A stretch of 64,000 nucleotides of DNA from Octopus sinensis (taxonomy: Eukaryota): the NCBI RefSeq assembly GCF_006345805.1, contig NC_043010.1, forward strand, positions 18,600,001 through 18,664,000, given 5' to 3'. Made by a program: the position numbers and the translations under genes. Shown piece after piece: positions 4,067 to 35,031 of this stretch (positions are counted from its first letter, which is position 1; each line of letters begins with the position of its first letter). Under the pieces are notes generated by a model. The model saw only the letters and a program-made list of their open reading frames with translations, did not search any database and had not been told where the DNA came from.

Positions 4067-7000
4067 AAGGAAATAGAGGAGGAGGTTCTGGTCTTTGTAG
4101 AATGAACTTAAACTCACATCTGACATAGAAGCTGGCCATTTGTTGGTGTCACACACAACTTCATGTACAGACACACACAAACACTCACACACACACACAC
4201 ACTCATGCATATATACATACATATATCCACATGCATGTACGTACACATGCATGCACACACACACATATACACCCACAGGTATGATGAAGTGGGTAAGAAG
4301 TCTACTTCCCAACCACATGGCTTTTGATTCAATCCCATCATGTGGCACCTTCAGCAAGTGTCTCTACTGCAGCTATAGGCTGACTAAATCCTTGTGAATG
4401 GATTTGGCAGACGGAAACTGAAAGAAGCTTGGTGTGTGTGTGTGTGTGTGTGTCTGTCTGTCTATGCCTGTGTCTGTGCTTGTTCCCTTACCACCATTTG
4501 ACAACCGGTGTTGGTTTGTTTACATCTCCTGTTACTTAAAGGTCCAACAAAAAGAAGAGATTTATAGAATAAGTACCAGGTATTTAAAAAAAAGGCATTG
4601 CCCCAGCATGGCCACAGTTTAATGACTGAAACAAGTAAAAGAAAGTGAAAGAATGATTTCCAAGGGAAACTACAAGGAATGCTGTTAATTACGATGACAT
4701 CATTGTCAGTTGTAATGATTAGAGTTGTTTGGTCATTAATTAGCATTAACGAGTAAAAGTATTGTGTGGTCAACTTTCAGGTTGTGGTCACTATACTGGC
4801 TGGAATCAGAGGAAGTTATAAAGAGAGTTTCTGCAAAGTCTTCACTGGACTGGCGAAAGACTACAACAGGTGAGTACTGATGATGATGGTGATGATGCTG
4901 ATGAGGATGAATGGTGATAGTGGTGGTAGTGGTAGTAGTGGTGTGGTAAGATGGTGTGTGTTGCTGTTGGTGTTGTTGTTAACTCAGGCCTCTGTATATC
5001 ACTAATGACCATAAATGAAGGTCCTAGTTGCCCGTCCCATTGCAACACCATTGTCTGTAGCTGAATAGTCCAATGCATGAACTACAAGTCAGACTTGGGG
5101 GTCATCTGTCCTGGTTCTGTTTGATTTGTGGCATTGACTTATGGCTGGTCACTGTGGTCCTCCATGTTGTGTCATTGCCAGAGACATGGCAGGAGTATCC
5201 TCTCCCAGTAAGTTGCCTGGTTCAATCTCTCCTGTATAAGATGTTCAACATGGAAGACAGGTTGTTGCCAATGAAGCGTTTCACCCTTCCCCACACTAAT
5301 CATGGATCAAAAGGAACAGCTTGACCGTTACAATTTGGCCTCAGCATTGTCATCGCAGGAGTTGTCAGAATGAGATTGTAGACTCCAAGAATGAACCTCC
5401 AGCTCCCAATTTTCCCTTAGAGTTTACTTCCAAAGTTTTTTTCCATGGCCAAGTGGTTGGGTATGGCCACAAAGCAGCAGAGGTATGGAATCAGGGTTTT
5501 CTTTCTCCCAGATGTGTTGCATCCTCTCCTTCATGCTAAAAATCTCCATCTACCCAACAACAGTCTATGCCATCATCTCACCTAAATCAGAGACATGCTG
5601 TCACCAGTTAATATCTTAAATGCCAGGAGGTCCATCTTGCCTCGGTCTCTCTACTGGTCAATCAATGTGGACCAGCTCTACTAGCTGCTCTATTTTAGCC
5701 TTAATTTTTGATTTGTGTTAATATAAAAATGGAACATTCCTGTGTCACCTTGTCGTTGCCATCTCAGTTGTGTTCTGTCTCTCTACAGTTGGATAATCTT
5801 TCAGCAACCGATCAGGAATGCAGAAGAGTTTGATGCAAAGAAGTTGCAACAGCAGCTCTCTTGCAGTCTGCAAAATCAATCCCAGCAGATCCGGAGATCC
5901 GCCAGCGGAGGCAGGAAATCTATGCGAATCATTGTTGTTGTTCCTGGGTAAGTCTTGTCCATTGTTTTAGAACGGTCAGTCATTGTCCACTACTGTAGAG
6001 AAGTAACCCATTTGCCATTATTATTTTAACACACAACGGTAAAGGGCTAATGGTGGATTTGAACTTAAAACCTCTGACTCAGAAGCCTCCGTACCTTACC
6101 ACCCCACCAGTCATTCCACCTGTATTAACCCCCACACACACACACACACGCACAAACACACACACACACAACACACACACACAAACACACACACACACAT
6201 GCACACTTCACACACACACACACACATACACATGCACACACACACACACACACTATTTAGTTGTTCTGCTTTTTATATTTACAGTTATACTGAAATCATT
6301 GATGTGGTCAGAGCTGTCCACTCACATCCAGACCGTCACATTGCAGCACAGATGGACATCGGTCAGTTTCTGTTATGTCTTTCTTCATCCAGTAAATTTT
6401 AGTGGTCACTAACAGTTGTACTCAATGAATCATTGGTCATCTTAGTCAGTTTTAGACACTACAACAAATTGTTGTCTTTATCAGCCTCATGTCCTGAATA
6501 AGTAGTACTCAGGGTAGGCAGTAGGCATCAATAAAATGCACACTAAAGGACTTTTCACTATCAAAGAATATGAAACAGTATTTTAAATACATACATGCAT
6601 AGAAATATATATATAAAATTAAATAAGGGCAGAGATTGATATTAATCAATTAAAACCAGTGGCCTAGCATATTTTTAAAAAATCCGAAGATTAAATATTT
6701 TTTCATACAAACTTTAGAGGACTGACCACTAAAAGTGGACAGCCTGTATGCTAGATATAGAATGTGTTCTCAAGAAAAAAATGACAGACTATGCTGATAA
6801 TCTTGCAGATGTTTGTGTATCCATATACGTAAATATTAACAAGTGAAACTAATTAGTACATAGGTTATCGTTTTTTATTTTGTATATTTTCATTTGTCTT
6901 GCTTATTTTTACACTTAGGTTTTTTGCTGGATTTTTTTCTTGAGAACACTTTCTTCATGGAAAATGGTGATTTTGATGTCTATATCTAGCATACAGGCTG

Positions 7001-7752: not shown

Positions 7753-8513
7753 TAATAATAATATAAAACAGTTTGATTTGGCTCCATGCAGCTTTAAAGT
7801 TTCACAGGCTTCTTGCAGAAACTTTAAGTTGTGCATTTCCTTTCGTTTGTCCACTTACTCGTATCGGCAGCACTTTTAAGGCCATTATTAAATGACCCCT
7901 ATCTGAGACTACCTATCTATCAGCATGTGTGTGTGCGTGCGTGGCGCCCTCTGTTGCAATTGATATTTAACTCCAGTTATTTCCCTTGTCAGGTGCTGTC
8001 ACAGTTTGTGTGAATCCCGACAACAGTTTTCTGGAGAACAGGTACAGTGCACACCCTCCTACCCCATTGTATTCTACTGAAACACTACACTGAAACACCA
8101 CTCTTACCTCGCCAACACCACATTATGCACAGCCTTTCCTCCTACCCACCACACTCACCCAGCCACATTAGACCAATTATGGAGACCCTCAACATTCACC
8201 TGGACCTTTTACAAGTTTCTCTATATTCAGGACTTACCTGCTTTCACTTCTAACAAGCTGCACTCTTCTGTATCATCCTTCACTCATCCAACATCCTAAC
8301 CTCCACTCACACACATCATTGCACCACTCAGTGAGACCCTACTGCTGTTCATTATTTACATTATTTACATTATTTATATTTGATGGATATTTGTCCTCAA
8401 CTTGTTTGTTGTTATCACAACGTTTCGGCTGATAGCCCGTGGGCATATGGCGTAGTGGTTAAAAGCATGGGCTACTAACCCCAAGATTCCAAGTTCAATT
8501 CCAGGCAGTGACC

Positions 8514-8546
<33 letters not shown>

Positions 8547-9811
8547 TTGAAAAATACCTTAGGAATGAGAACCCAGGTTCGAAATTTCCCCAAGACATCT
8601 GATGAAGGCTGGAGGGTATATCAGCTGAAACATGTTAACAACAAACAAGATGAGGACAAATATCTGTCAAATATAAATAATGTAAATAATGTTGATAATG
8701 TACATAATTCCTCATCTCTTAAATATAGAACTGTATTACCTACTGCTGTTGTTATCTACACAAACATTTAAACGTCCACTGAAAACAAGACCATCATCCG
8801 ACTGATGAGCACAATCTCTCTCTGTCCAACACACTACAAGCCTCAACTCACAAACTCACCGTTTCCTCTTTCTTGCCTCTTGAACTAATACCAGGATGAC
8901 CTCTACTCTCCTGCTGGCTCTGTATTTCTCCCACCAGAGACCACACCAAACACTTGCCAATCCTTCCTTCCCGTAACATTCATCCCACAGATATTTTCAA
9001 AGCTACAACAATCCCATCGATGTCACCAATCTTAATGGCACTACAAACGTCGTCTCAGTTGCTCTACCTCCTCCTCCTTCTTTCACTTGCAATTCTGTAC
9101 AACACACCACCCCAACTGTCTGTTAGACACCACACCAGCCCTGCCTGACACCACTATCTCCAAACACCACAAACCATCTCCACAATAACAACAACAACAG
9201 CAACAACACATCATTTTTGAAGGGCCATTTCTTTTGTCTCTTGTAGGTTCATGTTCCCTACACTGTGGAACCAATGTCTGGAAGGTTGGATCAATAACAT
9301 CCTGTTCATTGCTTCCAAGAAGTCTGAGGTAAGTCCAAACATGACCATATCTCCTCTCCTTCTTCACCACTTTCATATCAAACTTCTCTACAGAATTTTA
9401 GAGAATTCTAGACAAAATCTGGCAATGGAGATATTTTATTTTATACAGAATCTGTATTTGGCTTTCTAAATGTTAAAATCAAAAATCCAAAACTTTCAAA
9501 TAACAAACATTACTTGTGGTTGTTGCTCCACCACAATGGTACAGAAACTCCCTTGTTATGTCATCAGAAATATTATGGGGCAGGAACTGGACCGTTAGAA
9601 GAAACCTGGAGCCAATGATGTCCTTTCTTTTTATCAAAATATGTTTTATAGGTTCAAGCATGGCTGTGTGGTAAGAAGCTTGCTTCCCAACCACATGGTC
9701 CTGGGTTCAGTCCCACTGTGTAGCGTCTTCAGCAAGTGTCTTCTACTATAGCCTCGGGCCAACCAAAGCCTTGTGAGTGGATTTGGTAGACAGAAACTAT
9801 ATATATATATA

Positions 9812-9849
<38 letters not shown>

Positions 9850-12800
9850 CCCCATCACTGCTTGACAACCGGTGTTGGTGTGTTTATGTCCCCTTAAATT
9901 AGTAGTTCAGCAAAAATACTAATAGAATAAGTACTAGGCTTAAAACATAAGTTCTGGGGTCAATTTGTTCAACTAAAACCCCTCCAGGCGGTGCCCCAGC
10001 CTGGCTGCAGTCAAATGACTGAAACGAGTAAAAGAATAAAAGAATAGAAAACAGACACAGCAATAAAGTAGCAGAGACTGTAGAGAGAGGGGGGGAGTGA
10101 GACAGAGAGAGAGAGAAAAATGTCTAATGTTATTGTATTCTATTTATAGAATACATTTGGTTTGTTCTGAGTAAGACTTTGGTTCCAGAGTTGCAGGCTT
10201 TAAGGTGTGTGGAACCACCCTCTTTGTCACTGTAGTGTCCCAGCTCTTCTCTGACCCTCAATATTAGCACCTGTCAGGATCCCAACAATAGGTTAATTAG
10301 CATCTTATTGGAAGAAACTCCAAACACAAACCCACACAGCTTTGTGAGTGTCTTGGGAAAGGAAAAGGCAAAGGGAGTCGACCTTGACAGCAAATCGAGC
10401 TGTGGACTCCCTTCGACACCATTGAGGCAACTCGAGGGTACATGGAGCTCTCCAACCCTGTAAAGCAATTCACCTAGATGGTCACTCCAATTTAAAACCA
10501 ACAGCTTGCTGGTCACTGCAGCCATCTTAGCCTGCTGAGCCACTGCATCCAGACCCCCAAGAAGGAGACCAGATTGCACAAAATAGATCTCACTTCTAAC
10601 TTACTAAGCACAGGCAAGAAGAAAAGCCCTGCAGGCATGGAGAAGAGACAGAAACAGCAGGTACTGGATGGTACTGGATGGTACTGGCTGTCACAACTCT
10701 GTATGAAGATGCCTGCTCATCTCCATGATCTTCAAACACAAGGAACTGTCATCAGGTCTGTAGAATATATCTATAGATTGTTTACCAACACTCTACGCAC
10801 AGATAATAATGATAAGGAAATTATTGTATACAGTGCTCAGGTGCACCACAACTTGTCAAAAGTGCGTATAAAGCACGTGTGGCATGTAAAAAACACCCTC
10901 TACACTCACGGAGTGGTTGGCGTTAGGAAGGGCATCCAGCTGTAGAAACTCTGCCAAATCAGACTGGAGCCTGGTGCAGCCTCCTGGCTTCCCAGACCCA
11001 AGTCGAACAGTCCAACCCATGCTAGCATAGTTTACGGACGTTAAATGATGATGATGATGATGAAATCTTTGTAGTAAAAGAGAGACAAGACAGATTAATT
11101 TCTCTTTGGTGTTGGGGTTTCATCTGCAACTGAGTACATTCCTTGACTATCCACAGAAGACTCTACTTTTAGAACCATTAGGTCTACACCAACCGGATGC
11201 ACCAACTTGCATTTTTTTGCCGTTGGATCACTTACAAAGTTACTGGTGCATTTTACGTTTCACGGTTGGTTACCATTTATTGCTATCTTCTGCAAAATAC
11301 TTTATGCATCCAACTCATATTACAAAATGAATTTTTGCACAAGGCCAGCAATTTTGGGGGAGGGACTGAGTTGACCACATCAACCCCAGTATTCAGCTGG
11401 TACTCATCGTCCCTGAAAGGATGAAAGGCAAAGTTGACTTCTGTGGTATTTGAACTCAGAACGTCAAGATGGACGAAATACTGCCAAACATTTTGTCCAA
11501 CATGCTAATGAGTCTGCCTGCTTGACACCTCAGAAATAATTATCGTTAATAATATTTTCTTAAGGCAGTGAACTGACAGAATCTTTACCATTTCTTCTGG
11601 TTTCACATTCTGAGTCCAAATTCTGACAAAGTTGTTTTGGCATTTCATTCTTTTGGAGTAGATGAAATAAGTTGAATACGGAGTGGGTGGGTGGGAGGGG
11701 GCGTCGTTGACTGGCCCCTACCTCACCCTCACCCCCAAAGAAATTTCTGGATTTGTGCCTATAGTAGAAAGAATTATTATTGTTGTTGTTGTTATATCTT
11801 TTTCATGACCACCACTCCAGAAGAACCTCCATCTTATCAAGAAGATAGAACAATTGGTGAAGAAGAAGAACCACCAAGTCAACATCCTCACCGTTTTTGA
11901 TGGTCAACTGAACATGTAAGAATTTCTCTTCTCCGCCCCCCTCCACCTCCCCTCCCCTGTCTCTGGACATTTCGACCAGAACAACTACTTTACACATCTG
12001 ATTCGTCTTGTTGTTGTAGCACTATTTCACTCATGAGACTGTGGCCATGCTGGGGCACCGCCTTGGGAAATTTTTAATCAAATCAATCAACATCAGTACA
12101 CTTTTTCTTTTTTTCTTTTTTTTTTCCAGCCTGGTACTTTACTCTATTGACTTCTTTTGTCGAACCGCTAAGTTATGGGGAAGTAAACACACGGACACCG
12201 GTCGTCAAGCAGTGGTGAAGGACAAACAAGACACAAAGAAGCGCGCGCACACACACACACACAAGGCTTCTTTCAGTTTCCGTCCACCAAATCCACTCAC
12301 AAGATCCGAGTCGAACGTGTAGACTAAGCTAAGCTTAAATCCATATGCAAAACGATAAAAATAAGCCAGTTTTCACACCTTTCCTCTTATACTCAGTCTA
12401 TCAATAACCATATTTAATTTTCGATTCAAACTTTGATTAAAAAAGCGATGAATTGTTTTATTTTCTGCAAAATCCGTTGAGAGGGAAAAAAATAAACATG
12501 CTAAGTAGTCCAAGGGAAATAATCCTGCAAGTTTGATGGAGTTATTTCCCTTACACTGTTAAGTCTATTTCTGAAATAAGCCGATTCATAATGATTTCTC
12601 TCCCATTCCGTGTTTCAGTAAATATCATGAAAGTCTACGTGTTATTAATGGGGCTTAATATATAAACCTGAGTCATTGCTGGAATTATTTCAATAATGTA
12701 AAATAACAGCTTGGATCTTTTCGGTTTGAACGGCAGTTTTTTTAAAATAAAATTCCACGTAACTAAACACTTTTAAACTTCGTATACTGGTAGAATGTGT

Positions 12801-13693
12801 TTATAAAACATCTTTTTCTCTTGGCTTTATTGAGAAAATTCTATAGTTTGTAAGATATTTGGGTTTTTTTTCTTCAATTTCTGCAATTTCAACCAATCAC
12901 TGACGTCTATTGAGGTAAACAACATTCTGTGCCGTATCAATATGTCCCCCCTTTAAGAAACAGATTGGGTTTATTTACATTTGTGAAGAAAAAAAGATAC
13001 CCTTCCCCCCACCCCTAACCCTAACTAACCCAAACCCTAAAACAGATTGAAATGCAATAGATCAATACTAGGGTCATAATTATGGGTGACAATTTCATAA
13101 GACACCACTAGAAAAAACTGCCGTTCAAACCGAAAAGATCCAACAGCTTTTAGCTCAGCCAGGAAACATATTTCACAGCAACGCAATGTATCTTGAGGTT
13201 GTCCTCGAGAATATTCTTGCAGATTCCGGATTCCACGACACATGAGGGTGGATTGTTCAGTGATGTTCTTTATAAATGACTTTGGCAATATTTCCCCTTT
13301 TTCTGGTGTTTTTTATTAAATGGAAGCACCAATAAAGCCATCACAATGAACCAAAACCAAAGGTCTCTCCAGATTGAAACAAAAACACATGAGGCTAACA
13401 GAAAAGTCTTGTTAGGATCATTATTGTATGCCAGGCAATCCTAATTGCCATCGCCAGTCAAAACGGTATGTTTTAACAGACTGATACATAAAATAGACAG
13501 AAATAAGGGGTCATATACATTTATTTATTGATTAAAGGCTTACAGCTGTTTCAGGTGTTCGTTTTGGTGCATTCATCTTATCGGCCAATTGACTGAGTGA
13601 CTGAAAACATAGGAAACCACTACCCTCAAAGCTATCTTCTTCAGAACTTCTGGAGAAGATAGCTGTGCGAGTAGTGGTTCCAGTATTATATTG

Positions 13694-13747
<54 letters not shown>

Positions 13748-16700
13748 ATGTGTGTGCATGCGTGTGTGTACATTCCTTAATTGTTTATTGTTCATTCTTG
13801 AGTCCCAGATCTAAAACCCATTGTATCTTTAGGACACAGTGATTTCATCACCCATACTCTCAACAATACGCCCTTAAATATGGTTTCTGATTATAAATAT
13901 CTTGGGTCATACATATCATCATATGGAAAAGATTTTCTGACTAGAAAGGGTTTGGCCTGGTTAGCCTGTAATGATATGCATAAGATCTGGTCATCAAATC
14001 TAAGTAGAGATTTCAAACTTAAAATCTTCAAAGCCACGGTCAAACCAATTCTACTACCTGGACGTTATCAAAGAAGCTTGAGAGGCGGTTGGATGGAACT
14101 TACACTCGCCTCCTTATGAGAGTTCAAAATCTTTCGTGGAAGCGTCATCCAACCAAAGTACAAATATATGGGAAATTACCACCTGTATCATCTCTTGTGA
14201 AAGGTAGCAGAGTTCAGTTTGCTGGACATTGTTGTAGAGCTGAAAACAAGGCAATTTCTACTCTTCTCCTCTGAAAGCCATTTGCTCGCAATACCAGAGG
14301 GCACACACTCTCCTACCCTGATGTAATCTCCGGGGATACAGGTATCCAGCAACAGGACCTCCGTAATGCTATGGACTGTGAAGTCTGGTATAGCATAGTA
14401 AATTCCATTGTCTCAACCACGGTCAAACAATAATAAAATAATAAATAGGGATACTAATCGTGATCTGTGACTAATTTTTGATTCCTTGCCCTCACATCCA
14501 TCCTATTATACTCCATTTTCTCTGAAAGACTCCCTATTTGAACGAACTAGGACCTCATTCATTTTACTTCTGGCCCCTCCATGCATCTGTCTAAGCCTTT
14601 ATCTAATGCTGTCTAATTAACATTAAAGAATTCTAAATCCCTTAATCTGCTTCTTCCTTTCTTCAGGAGTTCCGATATTGATCTGATCCTTTCAGAAAAT
14701 AGCTTCAACACTGATGAACTGATCAGATCCAGACACCTGATAACTCCGAATTGGTAAGTGGACGACATATGGGAACAGTCTCCGCCAGGGAAGCTGTTTG
14801 CTATTTCTAACCCTGAAGGCAATTGAGTCTAGGTCTTCTCATTCTTATCCTAACTTTTTTATGGCCCCAAGTGCTAAATGGACAAACAGGGACAGTTGTT
14901 TATGGGGACATTTTATGAATAACAATGATTGAACAATAACATTGGTTTCAATATGATAATGAAGAGATGCCAATAATGTCCTGCTCTGTCTTGTAGTGGA
15001 ACATTATTATAAGACAGAGATCATGGTAAAGATCAAGACATTCCACTCATGGCCATCCCCCCCTTTTTTTGTCATTTTCACAGTGTCTAAATAATATCAA
15101 ATTAAAAGAGTTAATATTGCTGATACTTTCATATCTATTTTAATGTAATAATGTTGATTACTGGACAATAATGTTGATTATAATTTAGGAGAGTTGATTA
15201 CACTATAATCAATTAACAATGTGATAATATTCAAGTCATTATAGTTAGAAAGTTTAATGTTGATTAAATTCTTACAGCGTTGATTAATTTCAATAGCATG
15301 ACACTTTTGCTTCTCTTTCATTAATAGTAATTAACCTAGCAAAGTTTCAATTACAATGTTATAAAGTTCTTAGCATTTTATTCAAATAACTAGCGCTATG
15401 ACCCGGCAACGCTGGGTCATAGTGCTAGTGCATGCATATACAGCTGCATGCGTGCGCACATACACGCGAGTACTGTCCAAATCTCCGACCAATCACATAC
15501 AGCTATCTGGCATTCAATTGGCATATCAAGTTTTGGGCATTTTGATTGGGTTTTGGATAGAAAATTCACAAAAAGTCACTTCTATTGATTTTTTTAATGG
15601 CTTTGCGGAGTGAGTAGGGAAATGTAAAGATGTGCACAACCACCCTTAGACAGTTTTGAATGACCATAGAAGGTGAGAGCCCTCTAACTGAAAAATTGTG
15701 GATTTGTATAAAGGACACACACACAGACGTTTTGCCGTTTATATATATACTCTCTTTTTACTCTCTTTTACTTGTTTCAGTCATTTGACTGCGGCCATGC
15801 TGGAGCACCACCTTTAGTCGAGCAAATCGACCCCGGGACTTATTCTTTGTAAGCCCAGTACTTATTCTATCGGTCTCTTTTTCCGAACCGCTAAGTGACG
15901 GGGACGTAAACACACACCAGCATCGGTTGTCAAGCAATGCTAGGGGGACAAACACAGACACACACACATACATATATATATATATACATATATACGACAG
16001 GCTTCTTTCAGTTTCCGTCTACCAAATCCACTCACAAGGCATTGGTCGGCCCGGGGCTATAGCAGAAGACACTTGCCCAAGATGCCACGCAGTGGGATTG
16101 AACCCAGAGCCATGTGGTTGGTTAGCAAGCTACTTACCACACAGCCACTCCTGCGCCTATATAGAGATTTCATTTCAATAATATTAAGAATATATGATAA
16201 TATTGATATACTTTTGTTACAGTTTGATAGTATTTATAGAAGGTAGGAATTAAATAATATTAGTTTATTTTTTGGGATAGTTTTGCTTACCTGATAATAT
16301 CGTTGGGTGAAGTCCAATAGTGTTGATTTTATGTTAGAGTAATATTTATCTAATGTGTGCTAAGGCTGACTATGCTTGATAATGTTTGTTAGAGTTTGAT
16401 AGTGTTGATTACATTGTAATAATGTTTGTTTGGGCAGCAATAATGTTAATTGGAGTTCAGCAGTACTAATTGTAACAATGTTACTTCAAATATGATAGTG
16501 TTGACAACATTGGAGTAATATCAATTACATTGTGATAATATTGATAATTAGACAACAATGTTTGTCTCCCATCCCCTCCCCACCCCACCCTGCTCTAGTA
16601 ATAATTATTGTCATATTTCAGGATGGACCCTCAGACATCGAAAACACAATATTCTGCTGCTGTCCCTGTGGTGGATGTGAAACTGGTGTTTGACAAGGAA

Positions 16701-17835
16701 TTGGATAAGACTTTGTTCATACAGAGACTAACAGGTTGGTAGATAATCTGTGACATATAACAAGTGGATATATCACAGATTATCGTGGTTGTCATGGTTA
16801 CGATTTACTGACGTACCACAGATCATAACAAATCATATGTGTGATTTCCTATTTTGTCATCATTCATCTTATAATAATGAAATAATAATGAAATTGTTGT
16901 ATACAGTGCTCAGGTGCACCACAACTTGTCAGAAAGTGCATATAAAGCATATGTATTAATGTACAAATGTCTAGGAAGCAAACAATGTATGAGTCAGATA
17001 CATGCTTGCGTGTGTATGGAGGGGAGAAAATCAGGTGTAGTGTTGGCGAATCTCAGAAAGCATGGAAGTTTTGAAGGATGCAGTGCTCCGACAACTAACA
17101 ACTGATGCCGGCAGTTTGTTCCATGCTTCAGCAACTCTTAGCAGGAAAAAATGTTTCCTGAAGTCATGGGAGCTGTGCTGTTTTCTGACTTTGTAAACAT
17201 GTCCACCGGTGTTAGACAGGTGGAGTTTGATGTGTGAAGGATGGAGTCTTGATATGTAAGAGGTTGTCTCATAGGTTATGGCACTTAGAGATGGTTAAAG
17301 GATATTTTTACCATAAACATTTTCACTATAGGAAAATTTTCCATAAAAAAAATAAGTAAATTGCAAAAAAAAAAATTTTAATTAGCTGTTTTCTTAAAAT
17401 TACTAACTAGATTACATCATAAAATTAGTTATATTACTGACTATAACGTATCTTAAAGTTAATTAATTTAATATTAGAGTTCATATTAACATATTGCCTT
17501 TTTGTTATATTTATGATATATCTTGGCATATCATTCTGTATGTCGTATCATGTTTATGACATATCTCTTATATGCATCATATTTATATCCCATTAAATAA
17601 AGTACAGTCCAAGTAATTGTTAGGATTTTATTTTTTTATGTAATTAGATATTTTTACTAAATTGTTTTGATTGACTGCACAGATCAGTTTTGTAAATCTC
17701 TTTCACAGAAGAATTCTATTGTAGAACTAAATATCTTAATTAGAACTAAAAACCTAAATAATTAATATCTAAAGTTATTAATGTTTATGTTTCAGAATTT
17801 AAGATTGCACAGTGACTTTAAAATGAAGCTGTGTA

Positions 17836-17871
<36 letters not shown>

Positions 17872-20577
17872 ATACACACACACACACACACAGATATGTC
17901 TATGCATGTACGTATATACCACTTGAATTCAACAGGTCTGAAAGAACAGTTGGCAGGATATCCTTTCCACGGCAATGTCTACCATGTACGAGGGCAAGTT
18001 CAATTCCTAAGTAAGTAGCACACAGTTACCCACTCTATGTAAGAACATCATCATCATCATCATCATCGTCGTCGTCGTCATCATCGTCATCATTTTACAT
18101 CCCCTTTCGATAGTGGCATGGGTTGGTGAAGACATCACAGCCTATGTCAGTTCTTATTCAGTGTTACTGTCTTCCTTGATAGGTTGAGCAACCTTGTATT
18201 GTGTAGACATTCCATTTTCAGCAAAGTCTATACAGATGGAGGCTCTTCCTACCACCAACCACTTCACACAATATGCTGTGTGCATTTTATCCTATCACCA
18301 TTAGAGTTTGTTATGTCCATGACAAGACTAAAAGGTCCTCTCTGCCCCTAATCTCTCTCCACTCATTAACCAACGGAGTGTACTTTGTGCACTTTATCAT
18401 GGCACCTGCATCATCATCATCATCATTCTCATCACCATTATCATGTTGTGCAGTGTTGTAGTATAATAGTGAAGGGAGACTGAAACATCTCCATTAATTG
18501 GATGGTGCTCAAAAGATTGAACAGTGGAAAGAATACACATCCAATTTAAATTAAAACGTTCCAATGACTCTCTAAATTTATGAAAGGTGTTTTTCACCAG
18601 GGGCATCCACGCAGATAAATTCATCCTAACTAACTGGAGGATATCATCACTGTTATATTAACAGTCTCACATCACAGATCCAGCTCGATCAATCTTCTGT
18701 TTTCTATTTCTGACATAATGAATATTTTCTATGTATTGCTTTTCTTATGGTATGTTATTTGTAGCACCTTGCTTATAGTACCTTCTTTCTGTATGTGTCT
18801 GCATCTCTCAGAAGAAAAATCTATGTGTGAGCTCCAATACATAACACTGTCCAATCAACTGATCATTGACAAGGTGACCCTACAGCCACAGCCCCCTGGT
18901 CAGAAGCTTCAATCACAGCAAAAGTCCTTCCTTGTCTTCTCTGGTTGTTATCTCAACAAAGACGAACTGAAAATATGGCTGAAGACCTGCCTTAAAAAGG
19001 TAAGGGCTTTGTCCATTAAACAGGGGGTTCTTTTGTCATTTTCATTTTTCTATTCTTCTATCACACTGTTTTTTCTATTAGGGGGCAAATGCCCCTTGCT
19101 CAACTCCTGGGAAGAATTTAGAATAATAATAACAAAACCAAAACAAGCTTATTGCTTGTGCGTAACAACTCATGGAAAATGGTAAAAGAGGAGACAGAGA
19201 ACAGCAGTCATTCCAAGAAAATAAAGACAGCAACCAAAGCCAAAACTCCACAAAATAAAACACAAAAATTACAGAAAAGTGAAGAGTTAAAGAGCTGTAA
19301 AAAGGAATGAGTGGACAGACATCTCAGGGCGAATTCTAGGAAATGTGTGTCCTGACAGTTATCAAGTGATAGGACAGTTTATTCCATGCTTCAGCGATTT
19401 TGAGTGTGAAAAATGAGTGTGAAAAGTCATGGGTGTTGGGTAGTTTGGGGATTTTATATGCATATTCATGGGTTATGTATGTGTGTGTGTGTATTTATGT
19501 ATGTATGTATGTATGTATGTGTGTGTATGTATTTATGTGTGTATGTGTGTATGTATGTATGTATGAATTTACGTATGTGTGTGTGTATGTATACAGTGAA
19601 CTCTCAATTTAACAGACTAATGGGGAAAGATTTGTCTGATATTATCAAAAGTTTGTTAACCCTTTAGTTACTGTATTTCTGTTGGGATGTTCTGCATTTC
19701 TTTCAATTACTTTTAAATATAACCAAGAATTTAGTAAAATAACTTAGTTATCATTAAGCTGATGTTAGTAACCTAAATTGTGACTAAGGTTTGGTGGAAG
19801 ATTTTAATTCAAAACTTATGAAAACAAGATATTTGTGCTACAGAGCCAGAAGCAGTTTTAGCTGGGTTGGTAACAGAAGGGTTAAATTGAAGGTCCACAT
19901 GCAGTCACACTCACACTCCATCTCATGTTCACTCCACCACAACACACACTACAAACACTACTAACATCCTACATACCATCAACAATTTGTTTACCATCAC
20001 CATCATCTCTCTCGCTCTCTCTCTTTCTCTCTCGCTATCTATCTATCTCTCTATTTATCTATCTATCTATCTCTTGCAGATTGGTAGCCAAAAACCATTT
20101 CTTGACCGTCACCAGCTGTCGAACAAACTTGTCCGGTTGATTCAGGTTTGTCACTTTGCTTGATATCTTCAGATATTTGTTTATGAGAGTTCGTTATAAT
20201 TGTGAGTTAATTATAATTGGCAACAGCACCAAATAGTTTCTTTAAGAGTCACAGGACTCTCAGTGAGGTTGGGTCGAATTTAGAGGGAGGTTACAAGATC
20301 TCATGGCGTTTATGCCTTGCTATCCTTACCTCTCCACTGAACCACCACACAACATCTCTTCATCAGCACTCTGTGATGTTAGTCTCTTGTAGTCCAAGGT
20401 AGACAATTCTGCAATTTCTTACATTATTTGCATTCGATGGATATTTGTCTTCATCTTGTTTGTTGTTAACTCAGTGTTTCGGCTGATATACCTTTCAGCC
20501 TTCTTCAGGTGTCTTGGGGAAATTTCAAACCTGGGTTCTCATTCCTAAGATATTTTTCGATGTTATTATTGTTGTTG

Positions 20578-24494: not shown

Positions 24495-26157
24495 GGAAAT
24501 TGTTGTATACAGTACTCAGGTGCACTACAACTACAAAATAAAAAGGCAGATTTCAGGAAGCATGGGAGTCTTGAAGAATGGAGTGTCTTGACAACTGACA
24601 ACTGATGCAGGTAGTTTATTCCATGCTTCAGTAATTCTGAGTGTGAAAAAGTGTTTCTGAAAGTCATGGGTGCTGTGTTGTTTTTTGATTTTGTAAGCAT
24701 GTCCACGAGTGTTTGTCATATGGAATTCAAAAAGTTGCCTAGGGTTGTTATTGGAAAGGTGGTGGATAATCTTGTGGGTGTCTACTAAGTCAGTTGCCAG
24801 ATGTCTGAGCTTCAATGTGTCCAGTGTCCATACCCAAGGAAGCAAGACGTTCAGAGTATGGTAGATGTCTGACAGCGGGTATTTGTTTTGTTGCACATTT
24901 CTGAATTTTACTGGAGAGTTATATACTGAGCAAGATAAGGGGTTCCAGACTGGTGATGCAAATTCCAAGTGTGGACGTACCATTGTCGTATACAGTTTTA
25001 AATAGAAAGCTGGAGAGCAGCTGACAAAGTCCTTACTGAGTGATGCTAGCACCCCCACCGCACCCCCCTCAGCCACCTTGACAATCTTAGAGATGTAGTT
25101 TGTCCAACACAGATCACTTCTGCTAGGAGACTTCTTGGGATTGGTGTTACTGAAGGAGTATATAAAGGCTGTATTTTTCCTCCCAAAATGCATGGTGATG
25201 CACTTATCATCCACAGCTAGCTTGAGTTGCTAGTCAGAGATCCATTGCTGCATTGTGTCCAGGTATAATTGCAGGAAAGATCTATAGTGCATAGGATCTG
25301 TTCTTTTTATTTCGAGGTACAGCTTGATGTCATCAGCATATTTCAGCACTGTAAAATTCCTCAAATTGGCATCTATATCATGAATATATGCAACAAACAG
25401 TAGGAGTCCAAGAACATATCCCTGTGGTACACCTGAAGTCATCTTGGAGGGTGAAGAATGATGTCCTAGAACAGTAACTCCCTCTTTCCGACCGAGAATG
25501 AAGGACTTCAGCCAGTTATAGAGATCATCCTTCACACCCACTGCAGAGAGTTTTACCATGAGTTGTTTGTGTGGTACAGAGTTGAAGGCTTTAGCAAAAT
25601 CAGGGGAGACAGCATCCACCCATGAGCTGCCATCAGTAACTCAGGTGATGTCCTCATCCTCAAGAAAGTCGATGAGTTGACTACAGCAGCTGGAGTTGGG
25701 ATAAAACCAAATTGTGAGGATCGAATAAGGCTGTGAGACCTCCAAAAGTTCTAGAGTGTTTCTCTGACACAGGACTCCATCAGTTTGGTGATGCAGCTAG
25801 AAAGGCTGACTGGACGGTAGTTGACAGGTGATGTGTGATCCCCTTTTTTGAACAGGGGGACGACACTGGCAATTTTCCAGTGCCCTGGAGTGACACAGTT
25901 GTTAAGGCAGAATAGAAAAAAGGAAGAAAGCTGGTGCAATAGAAAGAACCCACCATGTTTGAGAAGCAGATAAGTTACACCATCAAGTCCAGGAGAGGAA
26001 TAGTTGCACTTGTTCTTGAGGTGGCATCGCAGCATTCTGAGTGTGAATTTCACAGATGTTACGGAATTTGATGTCAGAGTTGGTGAGGAAGGTACATTGG
26101 GATTTTCAGCAGTAAAAATGCCAGCATAGCATTCAGCAATAAGCTCAGCACATTCCT
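24495..26157 (-). mobile_element. CR1/L2-clade LINE ORF2 (RT), degenerate and 5'-truncated
   Basis: SSPGLDG, VVPLFKKGD, NYRPVSLSS, DFAKAFNSVPH, SGVPQG, KYADDIKLY, VRPHLEFASPVWNP across successive minus-strand ORFs. Confidence 0.93.
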
Positions 26158-28989: not shown

Positions 28990-29130
28990 GTATATATATA
29001 TATATATATATATATACGTGTATATATATATTATAATATATATATATATCTATATATATATAATACGTATATATATATATATATCTATATATATATTATA
29101 ATATATATATTATATATATATATATATATG
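27950..29130. repeat. Long compound microsatellite field, mostly (TA)n with TG/TACG interruptions
   Basis: Directly visible; about 850 bp of nearly pure TA from 28280. Confidence 0.97.
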
Positions 29131-29786
29131 TGCCTGTCGCATGTAAAAAGCACCCACTACACTCTCGGAGTGGTTGGCGTTAGGAAGGGCATCCAACTGT
29201 AGAAACTCTGCCAGATCAAGATTGGAGCCTGGTGCAGCCATCTGGCTCGCCAGCCCTCAGTCAAAATCGTCCAACCCATGCTAGCATGGAAAGCGGACAT
29301 TAAACGATGATGATGATGATGATGATGAAAATGGAGAAGAAATTAAAAACGATGAACTTTTATAGATGTAATAAGTGATAAACTGTTAGATTTCTTCAGG
29401 AAAAATAAGTATGTTTACTGTCTTGACTTGTGAATTATTGATGATTCAAAAATATTGTTAGATTGAAACATATACAGAATTTCTTTTTGGATATTTTTGG
29501 GTTGTTTTGTTGATGCGGTTCCTTTATACTTGTTCTTTTAGGTATATCTTATGATATTTTAATTTGCATTATTTTTCCAATTGTGATTCAAATAAAATGA
29601 ACCAAGAATCTTTTTTAATTTATCTTCTCCATTTTCTTTTATTGACTTTTTAATTTTATGACACTATTTATAAATATTGAGGAAGTTTCTATCAATATAT
29701 TTGGTTAAACCCTGTTGGCATCTGGATTGTCTTTAACAATCCCTTACAAGGATATTGCTTCCTCTAATTCTGAATGTACGTACATG

Positions 29787-29831
<45 letters not shown>

Positions 29832-30635
29832 TGCAGTGGACTCCTGCTGAGCCCATAATCCAGAGGTTATTAAATTGAAGCTTTGCTCTTGAAACTCAGC
29901 ACAATTTTTGTGGCTGAGTGGTAAAAAGTTTGCTTTCCAACCGCATGCTATGGCTTCAAGAGACACAGATATCTCAATAGGGCAAAAGATTTAGCTGCAT
30001 CTGATGCCAACCTGCTAGACATAGCAGCCAAACAATAAACTCCATATGTACTCTAACCCTTTCCAGATTAAACTTAAAACTGATATCAGAATATTTAAAA
30101 ACTATAAAAATGAGTTTGTTTTTGTGATTACAAGTCAGGAAAGACGAATACATGTATACCAGGAACTAGAAAAACAGTAGTGTGCCATGCTTAATCAAAT
30201 GGTGCAACACAGATTTAAGCCAGATGTTGCTAGATTTCTCAAATTTATGATTACATTGGAAAGGGGTGGAGACCTAAATCTGGGATTCCTCACCAGATGC
30301 TTTCCCTAACACCAACACTCACCCATTTCCAAGAAGAGTGGTTTGTTTTTCATACAGCTCGGCAGGAGTGGCTGTGTGGTGAGTAGCCTGCTTACCAACC
30401 ACATGGTTCTAGGTTCAGTCCCACTGTGGCACCTTGGGTAAGTGTCTTCTATTATAGCCTCAGGCCAACCAAAAGCCTTGTGAGTAGATTTGGTAGACGG
30501 AAACTGAAAGAAGCCCGTCATATACACACACATACACACACAATATATATATATATACATATATATATATATTGTTGTCCCTTTTTGTATCACCTAGTTG
30601 TCCGGATGTTTTGCGTTCTTGTCCATTTTGTATTT

Positions 30636-30725
<90 letters not shown>

Positions 30726-31656
30726 TGTGTGTGTGTGTGTGTGTGTATGTGTGTGTGTGCATATGTTTGTGTTTGCCGTTGTTCCCCTGAACATCGCTTG
30801 ACAACCGATGCTGGTGTGTTTGTGTCCCTGTAACTTAGTGGTTTGGCAAGGGAGACAGATAGAATAAGTACTAGGCTTACAAAGAAGTCCTGGGGTCGAT
30901 TTGCTCGACTAAAGGCGGTGCTTCAGCATGGCCGCAGTCAAATGACTAAAAAACTAAACAATAAAAGAATAAACGACATTGATCATTTGATGATGAACCT
31001 CATTTGCATATACTGTGCCATATTGAGACAAAGTGATATGCACACACACACGTACATAAATACAGAGAGAGAGAGAGAGAGAGAGACGTATGCATATACA
31101 CAGCACACACACATATAAAAACCGAGACGCATATATTCCATCAGAAGATAAGACAAATGTGTCTTTAGTGGGATCAGGTGTTAGGAGATTAACAGATCAA
31201 CTCCATACTGCTTACTTGATCTGTTTTAATCTGTTTTTTTACTCTTTATCTCCTGTTTTTATCAACATGGCCATATGTTATAACTGTTCATGTTCATATG
31301 AGTGCCACGTTGTGTGCATGTGTGTGTATGTGTGTGTGTGTGTGCATATATATATATATATGAATATATATATATGAATATATATATATATATATGAATA
31401 TATATATATATGAATATATATATATGAATATATATATATATGAATATATATATATATGCATATACTAAGTAATTAAGGGTTTAGCAACGAATTGCCTCAC
31501 CAACACACCGAATTTAGAAATAGCAGTCAAAGAGATATAGCTATTCCTTCTACTAAAAGGGGGATCTCAGTAAAAACACAGCACTTGAAAGGCAAACACA
31601 GACAGGTAAGAAAGAAAGAATGAAATGACGGCAATCTATCATACAATTTTAAGTTA

Positions 31657-31748
31657 CCTACGGACGTACATTTCGAAATCAAGTTTTAGGAAAGCATAAG
31701 AATTAGAAAATTCTACCTTACCCAAACTTCTTTTCTCATCGGCGCAGG
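31657..31748 (-). ncRNA. Type I hammerhead ribozyme motif with long stem II
   Basis: CCTGCG-CCGATGA-GAAA...TTTC-GAAA-TGTACG-TC|CGTAGG. Confidence 0.75.
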
Positions 31749-32242
31749 ATACTACAATTATGAATAATTGTATATTAAATTTTGAGATACTAGAAGGCAT
31801 TATCTCAACTCAGTGTCAGAGCGAGCCAAAGCATGACCAGTACCACGAAATTCAAAGTGTGAATGAAAGTTTGTGTCACCAGCCCCCTTCCACCCGCGTG
31901 TAGCCAAGACAAAATGCTGTGGTCATTTACTGGGATAAAATATGGTTATCAGTAACAGTAAAGGGTGAAATTAATTAATTTGGAATAATTATCAATTACA
32001 CCAAGTAGATTTCAGCATGTAAAAGCCCCATTCGAGGAAAATTTAAGTAATACTAAGTAATTAAGGGTTTAGCAACGAATTGCCTCACCAACACACCGAA
32101 TTTAGAAATAGCAGTCAAAGAGATGTAGCTATTCCTTCTACTAAAAGGGGGATCTCAGTAAAAACACAGCACTTGAAAGGCAAACACAGACAGGTAAGAA
32201 GAAAGAATGAATGACGGCAATCTATCATACAATTTTAAGTTA

Positions 32243-32334
32243 CCTACGGACGTACGTTTCGAAATCAAGTTTTAGGAAAGCATAAGAATTAGAAAATTCT
32301 ACCTTACCCAAACTTCTTTTCTCATCGGCGCAGG
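32243..32334 (-). ncRNA. Type I hammerhead ribozyme motif with long stem II and palindromic stem III
   Basis: CCTGCG-CCGATGA-GAAA...TTTC-GAAA-CGTACG-TC|CGTAGG; 6-bp stem I, GUC cleavage triplet. Confidence 0.8.
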
Positions 32335-32540
32335 ATACTACAATTATGAATAATTGTATATTAAATTTTGAGATACTAGAAGGCATTATCTCAACTCAGT
32401 GTCAGAGCGAGCCAAAGCATGACCAGTACCACGAAATTCAAAGTGTGAATGAAAGTTAACTATATATGCATATATATATATAATATATATATATATATAT
32501 TATATATATATATATATGTATATATATATAGATATATATG

Positions 32541-32580
<40 letters not shown>

Positions 32581-32904
32581 TAAATATGTTATACATACAA
32601 CACACACACTTATAAATGCGACCTTCAGTGTATACATCCACGTGCATTTCTGTCTTATACAATAAGCCTCTCGGGGCCCACTCCTCCCCCAACCCCACAG
32701 TGATTGCATATTTAGAACCAGGTTAACCCCCTGGAGGAGTCTCTCTGCATTGCTTTGGTCTGCCAGCCTGATGCTCCGATTCCTATCTCCCTGGAACATC
32801 TCTTGTGTTCTTACAACCAACGAAATTCAGACTACGAAGTTTAACCTTGGAAGTAGAAGTCTGGCGATGAAAGAAGCCAGAGAGTTTTGGGGAGAAATTA
32901 AGTC

Positions 32905-33170
32905 TAATCATCACCACCACCATCACCACTACCACCACCACCACCACCACCACCATCCCCATCCCCATCTCCACTACCACCACCACCACCACCATCCGCA
33001 TCTCCACTACCACCATCCCCATCTCCACTACCACCACCACCACTATCCCCATCTCCATCACCACCACCACCATCCCCATCTCCACTACCACCACCACCAC
33101 CACCATCCCCACCACCACCACCATCCCCATCTCCATCACCACCACCACCACCTCCACCATCATCATCATT
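32905..33170. repeat. (CAC/CAT)n trinucleotide low-complexity repeat with higher-order unit catccccatctccactac
   Basis: Directly visible. Confidence 0.9.
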
Positions 33171-33509
33171 CAGAAATTGTATGACAGCCATTAAGAATAA
33201 TGTCAGCTATAGCAGAATCATTTGGATGCTGGGCAAAATACTTTGCTTCTCAAACATGATGGCTTCTTTCTATTGAACCAGCATTCCATCCATCCTGATG
33301 TTCTGAGTTCAGATTCTACCACAGTCACCTTTGCCTTCCATCCTTTGGTGGGGAGGGTCAATGAAATAAGTACCAGTCATGTACTGAGGTCAAAGTAATC
33401 ACCTTACCTCATCTCCCAAAATTACTGGCCTTGAGCCACAATTCGAAATCAGTAATTTTGGTAATCCTTTAATTTTTGTGTCTGCTTTGGCATTAAAGCC
33501 TGCTTCATA

Positions 33510-33926
33510 TTGTTTGGGGATCAGATACCTCAGGGCAACAATTTTGTTTTGGGATCAGATGCCTCTGGGCAGCAATTTTGTTTGGGGATCAGATGCCTCT
33601 GGGCAGCAGTTTTGTTTGGGGATCAGATGCCTCTGGGCAGCAATTTTGTTTGTAGATCAGATGCCTCTGGGCAGCAGTTTTGTTTGGAGATCAGATGCCT
33701 CTGGGCAGCAATTTTGTTTGTAGATCAGATGCCTCTGGGCAGCAGTTTTGTTTGGGGATCAGATGCCTCTGGGCAGCAATTTTTGAGGGGTATCAGATGC
33801 CTCAGGGTAGCAATTTTGTTTGGGGATCAGATGCCTCTGGGCAGCAATTTTGTTTGGAGATCAGATGCCTCAGGGCAGCAATTTTTTGGCGGGGATCAGA
33901 TGCATCAGGGTAGCAATTTTGTTTTT
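33510..33926. repeat. 34-bp minisatellite, about 12 copies (ttttgtttggggatcagatgcctctgggcagcaa)
   Basis: tcagat motif recurs at 33521, 33555 and onward with 34-bp period; no spacers. Confidence 0.95.
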
Positions 33927-35031
33927 TGATGAAATCCTTTCTCTCAGATGAAATCCATGGAACAGGAAGTGATTGTCAGTTTCTTCATATTGAGACAATT
34001 CTCCAAGAAGCAAAACTTCTTCCTTCAAATCATGAACCAGATTATTTTCTCTTTCAAATGTTTTCTGTGTTTCTTGGTTTTTTCTCTCTTTTTCTTTTTA
34101 ACGTAAAATTGAAATCCATGAACAATTAACGAAACTGAAATATTTGAAAAGTTGTGCAATATATTCCTTATATCAAGATTAAAAGGAAGCAAAACAAGAT
34201 TGTAAATGAGGCAAAATGATGCATGGCAAAATATAAGAAAAAGAACTTATTTTAGACAAAAGGCTCAGCAGCCCCCTACACCAAAAGACTGCCCAGTAGA
34301 TGGCTTTTCAATTTCTTTATTGGCCACAGGGGGCTAAACATGGACAAACAAGGACAGACAGGGGACAAACAAGGACAGACAAAGGGATTAAGTCGATCAC
34401 ATCAACCCCAGTGCATAACTGGTACTTATTTAATTGACCCCGAAAGGATGAAAGGCTAAGTCGACCTCGGCGGAAATTGAACTCAGAATGTAACAGCAGA
34501 CGAAGTACTACTGAGCGTTTCGCCCAGCATGCTAATGTTTCTGCCACTGGGTGGCTTTTTGGCCAGTGTGTGTGTGTGTGAGAGAGAGAGAGAGTTTGAA
34601 TGCTGTAAAGTGACTGATGTTCATTAGGGCATCCAGCCATAGAAACCATGCCAAAGATGATACATTGGAACAAGACATCATCCTCCAATTCACTAGATTC
34701 TGTTGAGCTGACCAACCCTGGCCAGCACCAAAAAACCAACAAATTTATTTGTTGATGTGATTGTGTTTCACTAATTAAAATAACGAGGCCAACAAAAGGT
34801 GTTTTGTTTCATCCTTCTCAAACGAAACAAAACTTCTTTTGTTGGACTCACTGTTTAAATAAAACCAAAATACTCTCAAAATTGATACTTGTAGTACTTT
34901 ATTGTAATTATTGTAAGTGGCTCTTCCCATATTACTTTGAATAGGTAACCAAAGAGTAATATATATTTATGTCAATGTGTGTTTAAATACTTTTAATGTT
35001 AACAATAATTTTATCATACAATCCCATGCAT

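Follow-up and report, generated by a model that had tools for sequence, protein, structure and literature searches.

Metazoan non-LTR retrozymes and Penelope-like elements (PLEs) are the closest described systems to the element considered here. The former are non-coding, low-GC tandem units, each with one type I hammerhead, that are dispersed as dimers to multimers. Their units measure 170-400 nt according to Cervera and de la Pena (2020, PMC7229834), and consensus lengths of 51-972 bp are given by Li, Clavereau and Pollet (2026, bioRxiv 10.64898/2026.07.22.740005). Retrozymes have been found in molluscs, with PLEs proposed as the mobiliser (PMC7229834; bioRxiv 10.64898/2026.07.22.740005). PLEs are called a "strong candidate" mobiliser of animal retrozymes in PMC7229834; the 2026 preprint treats the mechanism as open and favours local satellite growth. 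PLEs with their pseudo-LTRs and tails leave partial tandems, an inverted 5'-truncated partner and a tail at one end (PMC8557442, PMC11167929); their RT starts at two sites, their targets are AT-rich or (TA)n, and a hammerhead lies upstream of their ends. Craig et al. (2021, PMC8557442) remark in qualitative terms that a one-sided tail is frequent. Frangieh et al. (2024, PMC11167929) showed that the purified anole PLE protein makes nicks in both strands and extends them. Its RT starts at two internal sites bounding the tail, a dimer is predicted, and uncut RNA is the dominant substrate in vitro; the available part of that paper makes no mention of inversions, circles or retrozymes.

How does the octopus element compare with these systems? 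It shares with metazoan retrozymes the make-up described above, and differs in its 586-nt unit, its 61-nt stem II and a U4C core in about half of loci. Metazoan non-LTR retrozymes yield circRNAs, and for the octopus family a circle is predicted. New here are paired fixed 3' ends, one per arm, about 100-110 nt apart and mostly in (TA)n. These paired ends, the head-to-head arrays and the target duplications are undescribed for retrozymes in the available parts of PMC7229834 and the 2026 preprint. For a cephalopod retrozyme, or for paired retrozyme ends, the openly searchable literature gave nothing closer than the papers cited here; repeat databases may already list the family. We think it probable that the element is a non-LTR retrozyme inserted into (TA)n by a PLE endonuclease/RT from a predicted circular RNA template. 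The locus lies in a 64,000-nt stretch of the Octopus sinensis genome (the window, meaning the whole of the DNA analysed), with the following parts:

31462..32456, minus strand: the whole insertion (locus L070), 1.69 units, a 5'-truncated single arm whose 3' end is the family's site A
31871..32456, minus strand: the full 586-nt unit used as coordinate reference, unit position 1 being 32456
31462..31870, minus strand: partial second unit, unit positions 1-407
31451..31464, plus strand: left copy of a 14-bp target-site duplication, its final 3 bases overlapping the element's A end
32461..32474, plus strand: right copy of the 14-bp target-site duplication, with 3 extra bases from the element's 5' end
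31663..32248, minus strand: candidate self-cleaved 586-nt monomer or circle, as bounded by two predicted cut sites

An earlier note on this DNA had described a near-identical partial tandem duplication in a TA microsatellite with no ORF, and this description holds. Positions 31462-31871 duplicate 32050-32457 at 99.0% identity over 410 columns, with 2 substitutions and 2 one-base indels; (TA)n lies on either side of 31462-32456; and the longest stop-free stretch there, in six frames, is 67 aa. The duplicates are spaced by 586 at the hammerheads and by 588 in the 3' part, and no third copy of the 586-nt unit occurs elsewhere in the window. Unit coordinates are numbered from 32456 along the minus strand, with the predicted cut after unit position 208. 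The monomer, which the note had considered longer than typical animal retrozymes, is indeed above the 170-400 nt of PMC7229834 but falls inside the 51-972 bp of the 2026 preprint. Other features of the window include an open frame at 6043-6399 with a Pfam DAAF9_2 match (E 5e-9), which is probably an exon, and a reverse transcriptase fragment at 24534-25640 on the minus strand (RVT_1, E 8e-18 at 25233-25640), which is likely a decayed LINE and had no PLE match by tblastn. There is also a motif near 30880-30940 that we take to be a SINE, a degenerate CAC/CAT-rich tandem repeat with periods of 9 and 12 bases at 32876-33211, and a minisatellite of ~15 units with a 34-bp period at 33439-33953.

Each unit carries a hammerhead motif, read as follows:

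32243..32334, minus strand: type I hammerhead 1, from sequence, folding and covariation
32334-32329/32248-32243, minus strand: stem I of hammerhead 1, CCUGCG/CGUAGG
32328-32322, minus strand: core CCGAUGA (U4C) of hammerhead 1, from sequence
32321-32261, minus strand: stem II region of hammerhead 1, 61 nt, then GAAA, from sequence
32257-32250, minus strand: palindromic, three-pair stem III of hammerhead 1, then GUC, with the predicted cut at 32249/32248
31657..31748, minus strand: type I hammerhead 2, as hammerhead 1 except for C-to-U in stem III at 31670, with the predicted cut at 31663/31662

On a reading of the sequence, the two cuts proposed earlier, 32249/32248 and 31663/31662, and their 586-nt product are correctly placed. 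The earlier claim of a minus-strand type I hammerhead in each unit is borne out for stem I, CCGAUGA and GUC, but not for a palindromic stem III in both units: stem III is a perfect palindrome, ACGUACGU, in the upstream hammerhead only, and the downstream one has a G-U wobble (C-to-U, 31670). Stem II is long, at 61 nt, but less unusual than had been supposed, with ~55-60 nt also in the hammerheads of Hydra-type PLEs of the same genome. The folding z-scores of the two window hammerheads are -2.6 and -2.4. A scan with Rfam, which the note had put forward as a check, recovered no hammerhead family in 29000-35000 at E <= 5, probably because of the long stem II, and gave only microsatellite-driven miRNA matches; a hand-written hammerhead pattern scan likewise missed both window motifs. 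The identification of the hammerhead rests on sequence reading and covariation. Among the other loci, a pattern scan picked out two type I hammerhead-like motifs, at L085:2146 (+) and L087:1191 (+), whose flanking stems are perfect and which are unrelated to the family.

There is evidence from the other copies that the hammerhead structure is under selection, in the form of core conservation and covariation. Outside U4 and N7, the 5' half of the core shows next to no variation (per locus, C3 in 91/92, G5 in 92/92, A6 in 91/91, G8 in 91/91 and A9 in 90/91), and the 3' half is fixed by sampling in the 60 loci chosen by pattern. Across the unit, 122 of 562 columns have a variant in at least 4 loci. 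With U4C permitted, the core is intact in 177 of the 183 segments that span it; position U4 is C in 42/92 loci, the window copy included, and U in 50. Variation in stem I is limited to one pair (G-U to A-U or the reverse), and stem II pair 138-194 is A-U in 57 loci and G-C in 29, with upper stem II plastic among copies. Among 33 distinct copies, 97.7% of cells are paired and 13 double changes are seen against 3.3 in shuffled data (0/500), a signal that relatedness of the copies can inflate; slid control structures are 30-47% paired. The U4C change lowers activity in vitro, yet is viable and infectious in a viroid (PMC3088659). By analogy, the short palindromic stem III suggests cleavage as a dimer. 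Dimeric cleavage has been shown for amphibian retrozymes with a short stem III (PMC7229834), and in the Xenopus retrozyme preprint 1/9 dimers were cleaved (bioRxiv 10.64898/2026.07.22.740005). Newt satellite 2 and axolotl retrozymes (PMC7229834) also have a short palindromic stem III; the window family differs from them in sequence, in its longer unit and in its long stem II.

The unit is a dispersed repeat. A search of 2.72 Gb of genome with the 586-nt unit as query gave 188 matches within the best 40 of 2905 candidates, and a 19-mer across the cut site has 772 exact genomic matches against 0 for its reversed control, which shows that the repeat is not a chance occurrence. With 772 exact 19-mers and multi-unit arrays, single-copy status is ruled out. 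The loci examined were the 40 top-scoring and 60 from the first 100 listed pattern matches, the latter on two contigs. Identity to the window unit ranges from ~72% to 100%, and arms measure 0.1-7.8 units; some arrays of 7-8 units have a single orientation, and most arms in pattern-sampled loci are shorter than 1.3 units. Two loci ~124 kb apart on one contig (L037 and L046, G000:C2) are the same insertion with the same flanks, from a segmental duplication or an uncollapsed haplotype. Copy number, tandem arrays, the conserved hammerhead and PLE-type ends likewise agree with the earlier view of a young non-autonomous element of the retrozyme/PLE kind. At the level of sequence, the element has what would be expected of a non-LTR retrozyme and of a non-autonomous element mobilised by a PLE; an autonomous partner carrying the same end domain is not among the PLEs sampled. 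Two other classifications were rejected. An autonomous PLE does not fit, there being no RT plus GIY-YIG ORF in the unit or linked to arms, and neither does a plant LTR retrozyme (which has its type III hammerhead within LTRs and a 4-bp duplication), given the type I hammerhead, 11-15 bp duplications and multi-unit arrays found here. No run recorded as RNA contained the unit; contigs of four runs, three guessed to be RNA and one of unknown kind, do contain it, although contigs cannot show ends, strand or circles. In particular, a circle junction is identical to a tandem DNA junction, so contigs cannot reveal circles.

The paired fixed ends are the main feature of the family and are invisible from the window alone. 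They map to the unit as follows:

32038..32057, minus strand: site A, the more frequent 3' end, unit 400-419 with mode 407, used by 82/145 arms
31462, minus strand: site A in the partial unit, at the same unit position, forming the window copy's end
31934..31963, minus strand: site B, the second 3' end, unit 494-523 with modes 510 and 517, used by 45/145 arms
31940..32119, minus strand: conserved, structured end domain, unit 338-517, shared at ~70% with sister hammerhead families

Among the 145 arms with a readable flank, 127 end within these two windows, which cover 50 of 586 positions, and 18 end elsewhere; TA-like sequence follows the end in 112. The distance of ~100-110 nt from A to B corresponds to a PLE-type "tail". 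Head-to-head pairs (n=44) comprise 30 AB, 10 A plus unclassed and 4 B plus unclassed, with 0 AA and 0 BB; such AB pairing departs from a 50:50 split with p = 2e-9. The 5' ends of arms are scattered; a pile-up of 5' ends at unit 187-199 was partly created by the sampling pattern at 196-214 and is not claimed. Each site lies 13-25 nt past a predicted hairpin followed by ACCCU, and the PLE protein likely docks on the end domain. The motif preceding site A is presumably like a plant telomerase template, a likeness on which we make no claim. Target duplications of 11-15 bp were found at 6/104 loci, against 0.6 expected from mismatched pairs, under a stricter landmark test in which 23/104 loci had a landmark in both flanks. 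This count replaced a first one (14 vs 5.4 expected) that had included landmarks from the element itself.

The same pairing is seen in the genome's autonomous PLEs. A Hydra-type PLE has inverted insertions with one short and one long end in 11/11 loci, ten of them picked for being inverted, and 8 further loci show the short/long pairing; its tail is ~150 nt. Three Neptune-like families, with tails near 40 nt, show the pairing in 4/4, 4/4 and 3/3 of the loci with both ends found, other loci having given one end or none. Altogether the rule held in all 30 autonomous PLE pairs checked. Together with the two RT starts of PMC11167929, this suggests that the retrozyme ends are PLE RT start sites. 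The Hydra-type PLE is very young (L303:1738-4434 and L304:1825-4521), and numbers at least 150 copies at >=98%; its open frame is 899 aa long, and its hammerhead has a ~55-nt stem II. Its place in the Hydra clade is based on two features given in PMC8557442, the DKT motif and a C-terminal endonuclease, not on a tree. Pfam gave no hit on the 899-aa ORF, and Atlas groups it with HTH_animal and GIY-YIG clusters. The three Neptune-like families (L163:4088-6523, L253:1653-4007, L261, L262) are also young, with frames of 811, 784 and ~700 aa; in two of the three, the palindromic stem III motif is not preceded by a clear canonical hammerhead core.

By architecture, the Hydra type is the PLE closest to the window family, with a long stem II and a long tail; it also shares the (TA)n target, the palindromic stem III and the strict short/long pairing, but has no sequence similarity to the window unit and a different end domain. 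Relative to PLEs in general, the window family lacks an ORF and has a tail of ~100-110 nt rather than the 30-40 nt of published accounts (PMC8557442, PMC11167929), and there is short AU microhomology between its ends and the TA target, whereas the anole PLE is described as starting without homology. No PLE with the unit's end domain was found in the three young Neptune-like families, the one young Hydra-type family or ~80 other Hydra-like loci. This partner search consisted of protein searches of the same genome, scoring the best 150 of 8,000-18,000 candidates each. End-domain matches near PLE fragments (L257, L285, L302, L313, L362, L363, L365, L370 and L388) were rejected as a PLE partner: TA tracts or other repeats intervene, or, where inspected, the match is on the wrong side or strand.

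Other retrozyme-like families share this organization. A second young tandem family, with a ~559-nt period (L108:1700-2258, G000:C1:190528499-190529054, and L203-L222; 1417 candidates), has a canonical CUGAUGA core, a palindromic stem III, a UU cut site, long inverted arrays, and ends near 462 and 553-556 of the query. A third, with a ~566-nt period (L076:1985-2262, L175 and L173-L202; 2543 candidates), has a hammerhead-like motif with a stem II region longer than 100 nt, and ends at 193 and 278 of the query. Both sister families show the two-end pattern, with 4/4 AB pairs in the third family, and both share the end domain with the window family at ~70%. Further variants occur at L057, L181, L213, L362, L363 and L365. 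A joint fold of six end-domain examples retains the long-range stem and the hairpin before site A.

Did the two arms of an insertion come from one RNA? Across 17 inverted loci, divergence is 0.56% within arms and 0.70% between arms, with a median distance to other loci of 3-7%. The 17 were hand-chosen; L036 and L039 (complex) and L037/L046 were left out, as were L043 (2.45% between arms, one segment aligning poorly), L121 (a mixture of two insertions) and inverted loci with little segment overlap. Locus-private variants are found on both arms of L032, L047, L051, L056, L066, L121 and L130; for example, 472C is present in 8/8 segments of L047 and in 0/78 other loci. Within loci of at least 4 segments, 151 variants belong to a single unit and 20 are shared (7 of the 20 from L121), a star-like pattern, and adjacent units diverge by 0.38% vs 0.39% for non-adjacent ones in 7 loci; assembly polishing may homogenise neighbouring units. 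Arm lengths are uncorrelated within pairs (rho 0.19, p 0.32; 29 of the 30 AB pairs, L102 left out). In these pairs 27/29 A arms cross the cut site and 27/29 B arms run past site A, which requires strand displacement or a second RNA. Two RNAs would fit the arm-specific differences at position 561 of L049 and position 391 of L130, and also L099:2451-3174, where a third-family arm (B end) and a window-family arm (A end) stand head to head with no TA between them; L099 could reflect the use of two distinct RNAs in a single event, or one insertion nested in another by chance.

The cut site itself is read exactly through by 737 units, and 3 copies start there. The start pattern gave 5 hits, comprising 3 true 5' ends and 2 small deletions, and a control position gave 2 hits, 1 of them true; 3 starts against ~1 expected by a rough estimate is a weak pile-up. 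One of these copies, L394:1333-1525, extends from exactly the predicted cut site to site A and has TA sequence flanking its 5' end; it may, like L395 and L397, be a trace of cleaved RNA used as template. With 737 read-throughs and 3 starts, a cleaved linear monomer was at most a minor template.

Several other explanations have to be weighed, the first two of which concern the template. The same PLE enzyme, acting at the same ends, could have copied a linear transcript that reads uncut through an existing array, in which case the hammerhead is unneeded and there is no circle. We consider this unlikely, even though the anole PLE prefers uncleaved RNA in vitro (PMC11167929), the core carries U4C, the single-orientation arrays of 7-8 units are possible sources, and reading through the cut site is explained equally well. 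Linear copying only shortens, yet long arrays occur in several subfamilies, and private variants in every unit of an array need a one-unit bottleneck. In addition, the strict AB pairing suggests that both primers were on one unit, and no flank is common to 53 free 5' ends, a weak point since most copies are truncated. A private variant in every unit, combined with array growth, argues for a circle; an uncut linear multimer fits the read-through but not the growth. R2-type template jumps leave many stops and untidy joints. It is very unlikely that the template was the cleaved linear monomer, with arrays made by RT jumping from the 5' end to the next 3' end: the 737 exact junctions speak against such jumping, and what points to it are the 3 copies beginning at the cut site and a few junctions with small deletions (L393, L396, L399).

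The remaining explanations concern how the arrays arose and what the units are. Unequal crossing-over, by which short insertions later grow into satellites, was proposed for Xenopus retrozymes (bioRxiv 10.64898/2026.07.22.740005), and 20 variants are common to at least two units. Adjacent units are, however, no closer than others, the two arms of a locus resemble each other almost as closely as do units of one arm, and arrays share their fixed ends with short copies; this reading is already largely refuted, and we regard it as highly improbable. The PLE-specific insertion marks, and arrays apparently born whole, instead indicate direct copying by a PLE, against later amplification. It is hard to credit that the units are mere terminal repeats of an autonomous PLE after 5' truncation. 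PLE hallmarks are seen throughout, and the short arms of most pattern-sampled loci would be expected of such repeats, but arms in the 100 loci run upstream into further unit sequence, never into a linked PLE ORF, and nearby PLE fragments are separate insertions. As for an assembly artefact, the duplication at 31462-32456 does sit in a microsatellite, and support for the locus comes from the assembly; the idea is nevertheless scarcely conceivable, because the two copies differ at 4 places, the same unit junction is found at many independent loci, and a 14-bp target duplication brackets the copy.

The preferred reading is a retrozyme probably copied by a PLE. Its insertion very likely depends on a PLE, there are good grounds to think that one template is shared by both arms, and on balance that template appears to be circular. 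The steps may be as follows. A tandem copy would be transcribed on the hammerhead strand, and two hammerheads, probably dimerized via their palindromic stem III, would release the 586-nt monomer, which by analogy a host ligase would close. A PLE protein dimer may then dock on the structured end domain and nick both strands of the TA tract ~14 bp apart; the target and its duplication are observed, and the enzyme is the presumed one. Both nicks would prime on a single RNA, one of them at site A and its counterpart at site B, in keeping with the observed use of one of each. Each RT would proceed by strand displacement past the cut site and could roll round the unit up to 7-8 times, which would give the multi-unit arms observed. 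Finally, the two cDNAs would join head to head, or a single one would persist, as in the window copy. There is a resemblance to L1 twin priming, in which both target strands prime cDNA on one RNA to give an inversion. The window family differs in that its presumed priming sites are internal and fixed and its arms overlap for several units, needing strand displacement.

What would this mean for retrozymes and PLEs? The element is of a known kind, with an unusually clear record of insertion and a two-site, two-strand priming model. The use of one end of each kind, in the retrozyme and in four PLE families, connects the inversions, which have long been known, with the anole PLE's two RT starts and predicted dimer. 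It also points to a small RNA domain and a geometry of the target, both of which are testable in an existing in vitro system. A broader proposal is plausible, although we advance it tentatively: a PLE dimer occupies two fixed sites of similar structure on a single circular retrozyme RNA and primes the two strands of the TA tract simultaneously; two RTs roll round the same circle to yield head-to-head arrays of up to 13 units per event; and a superfamily of several retrozyme families shares one folded docking domain. If true, this would explain PLE inversions and one-sided tails generally, and the arrays would preserve, in the genome, a record of rolling-circle target-primed reverse transcription.
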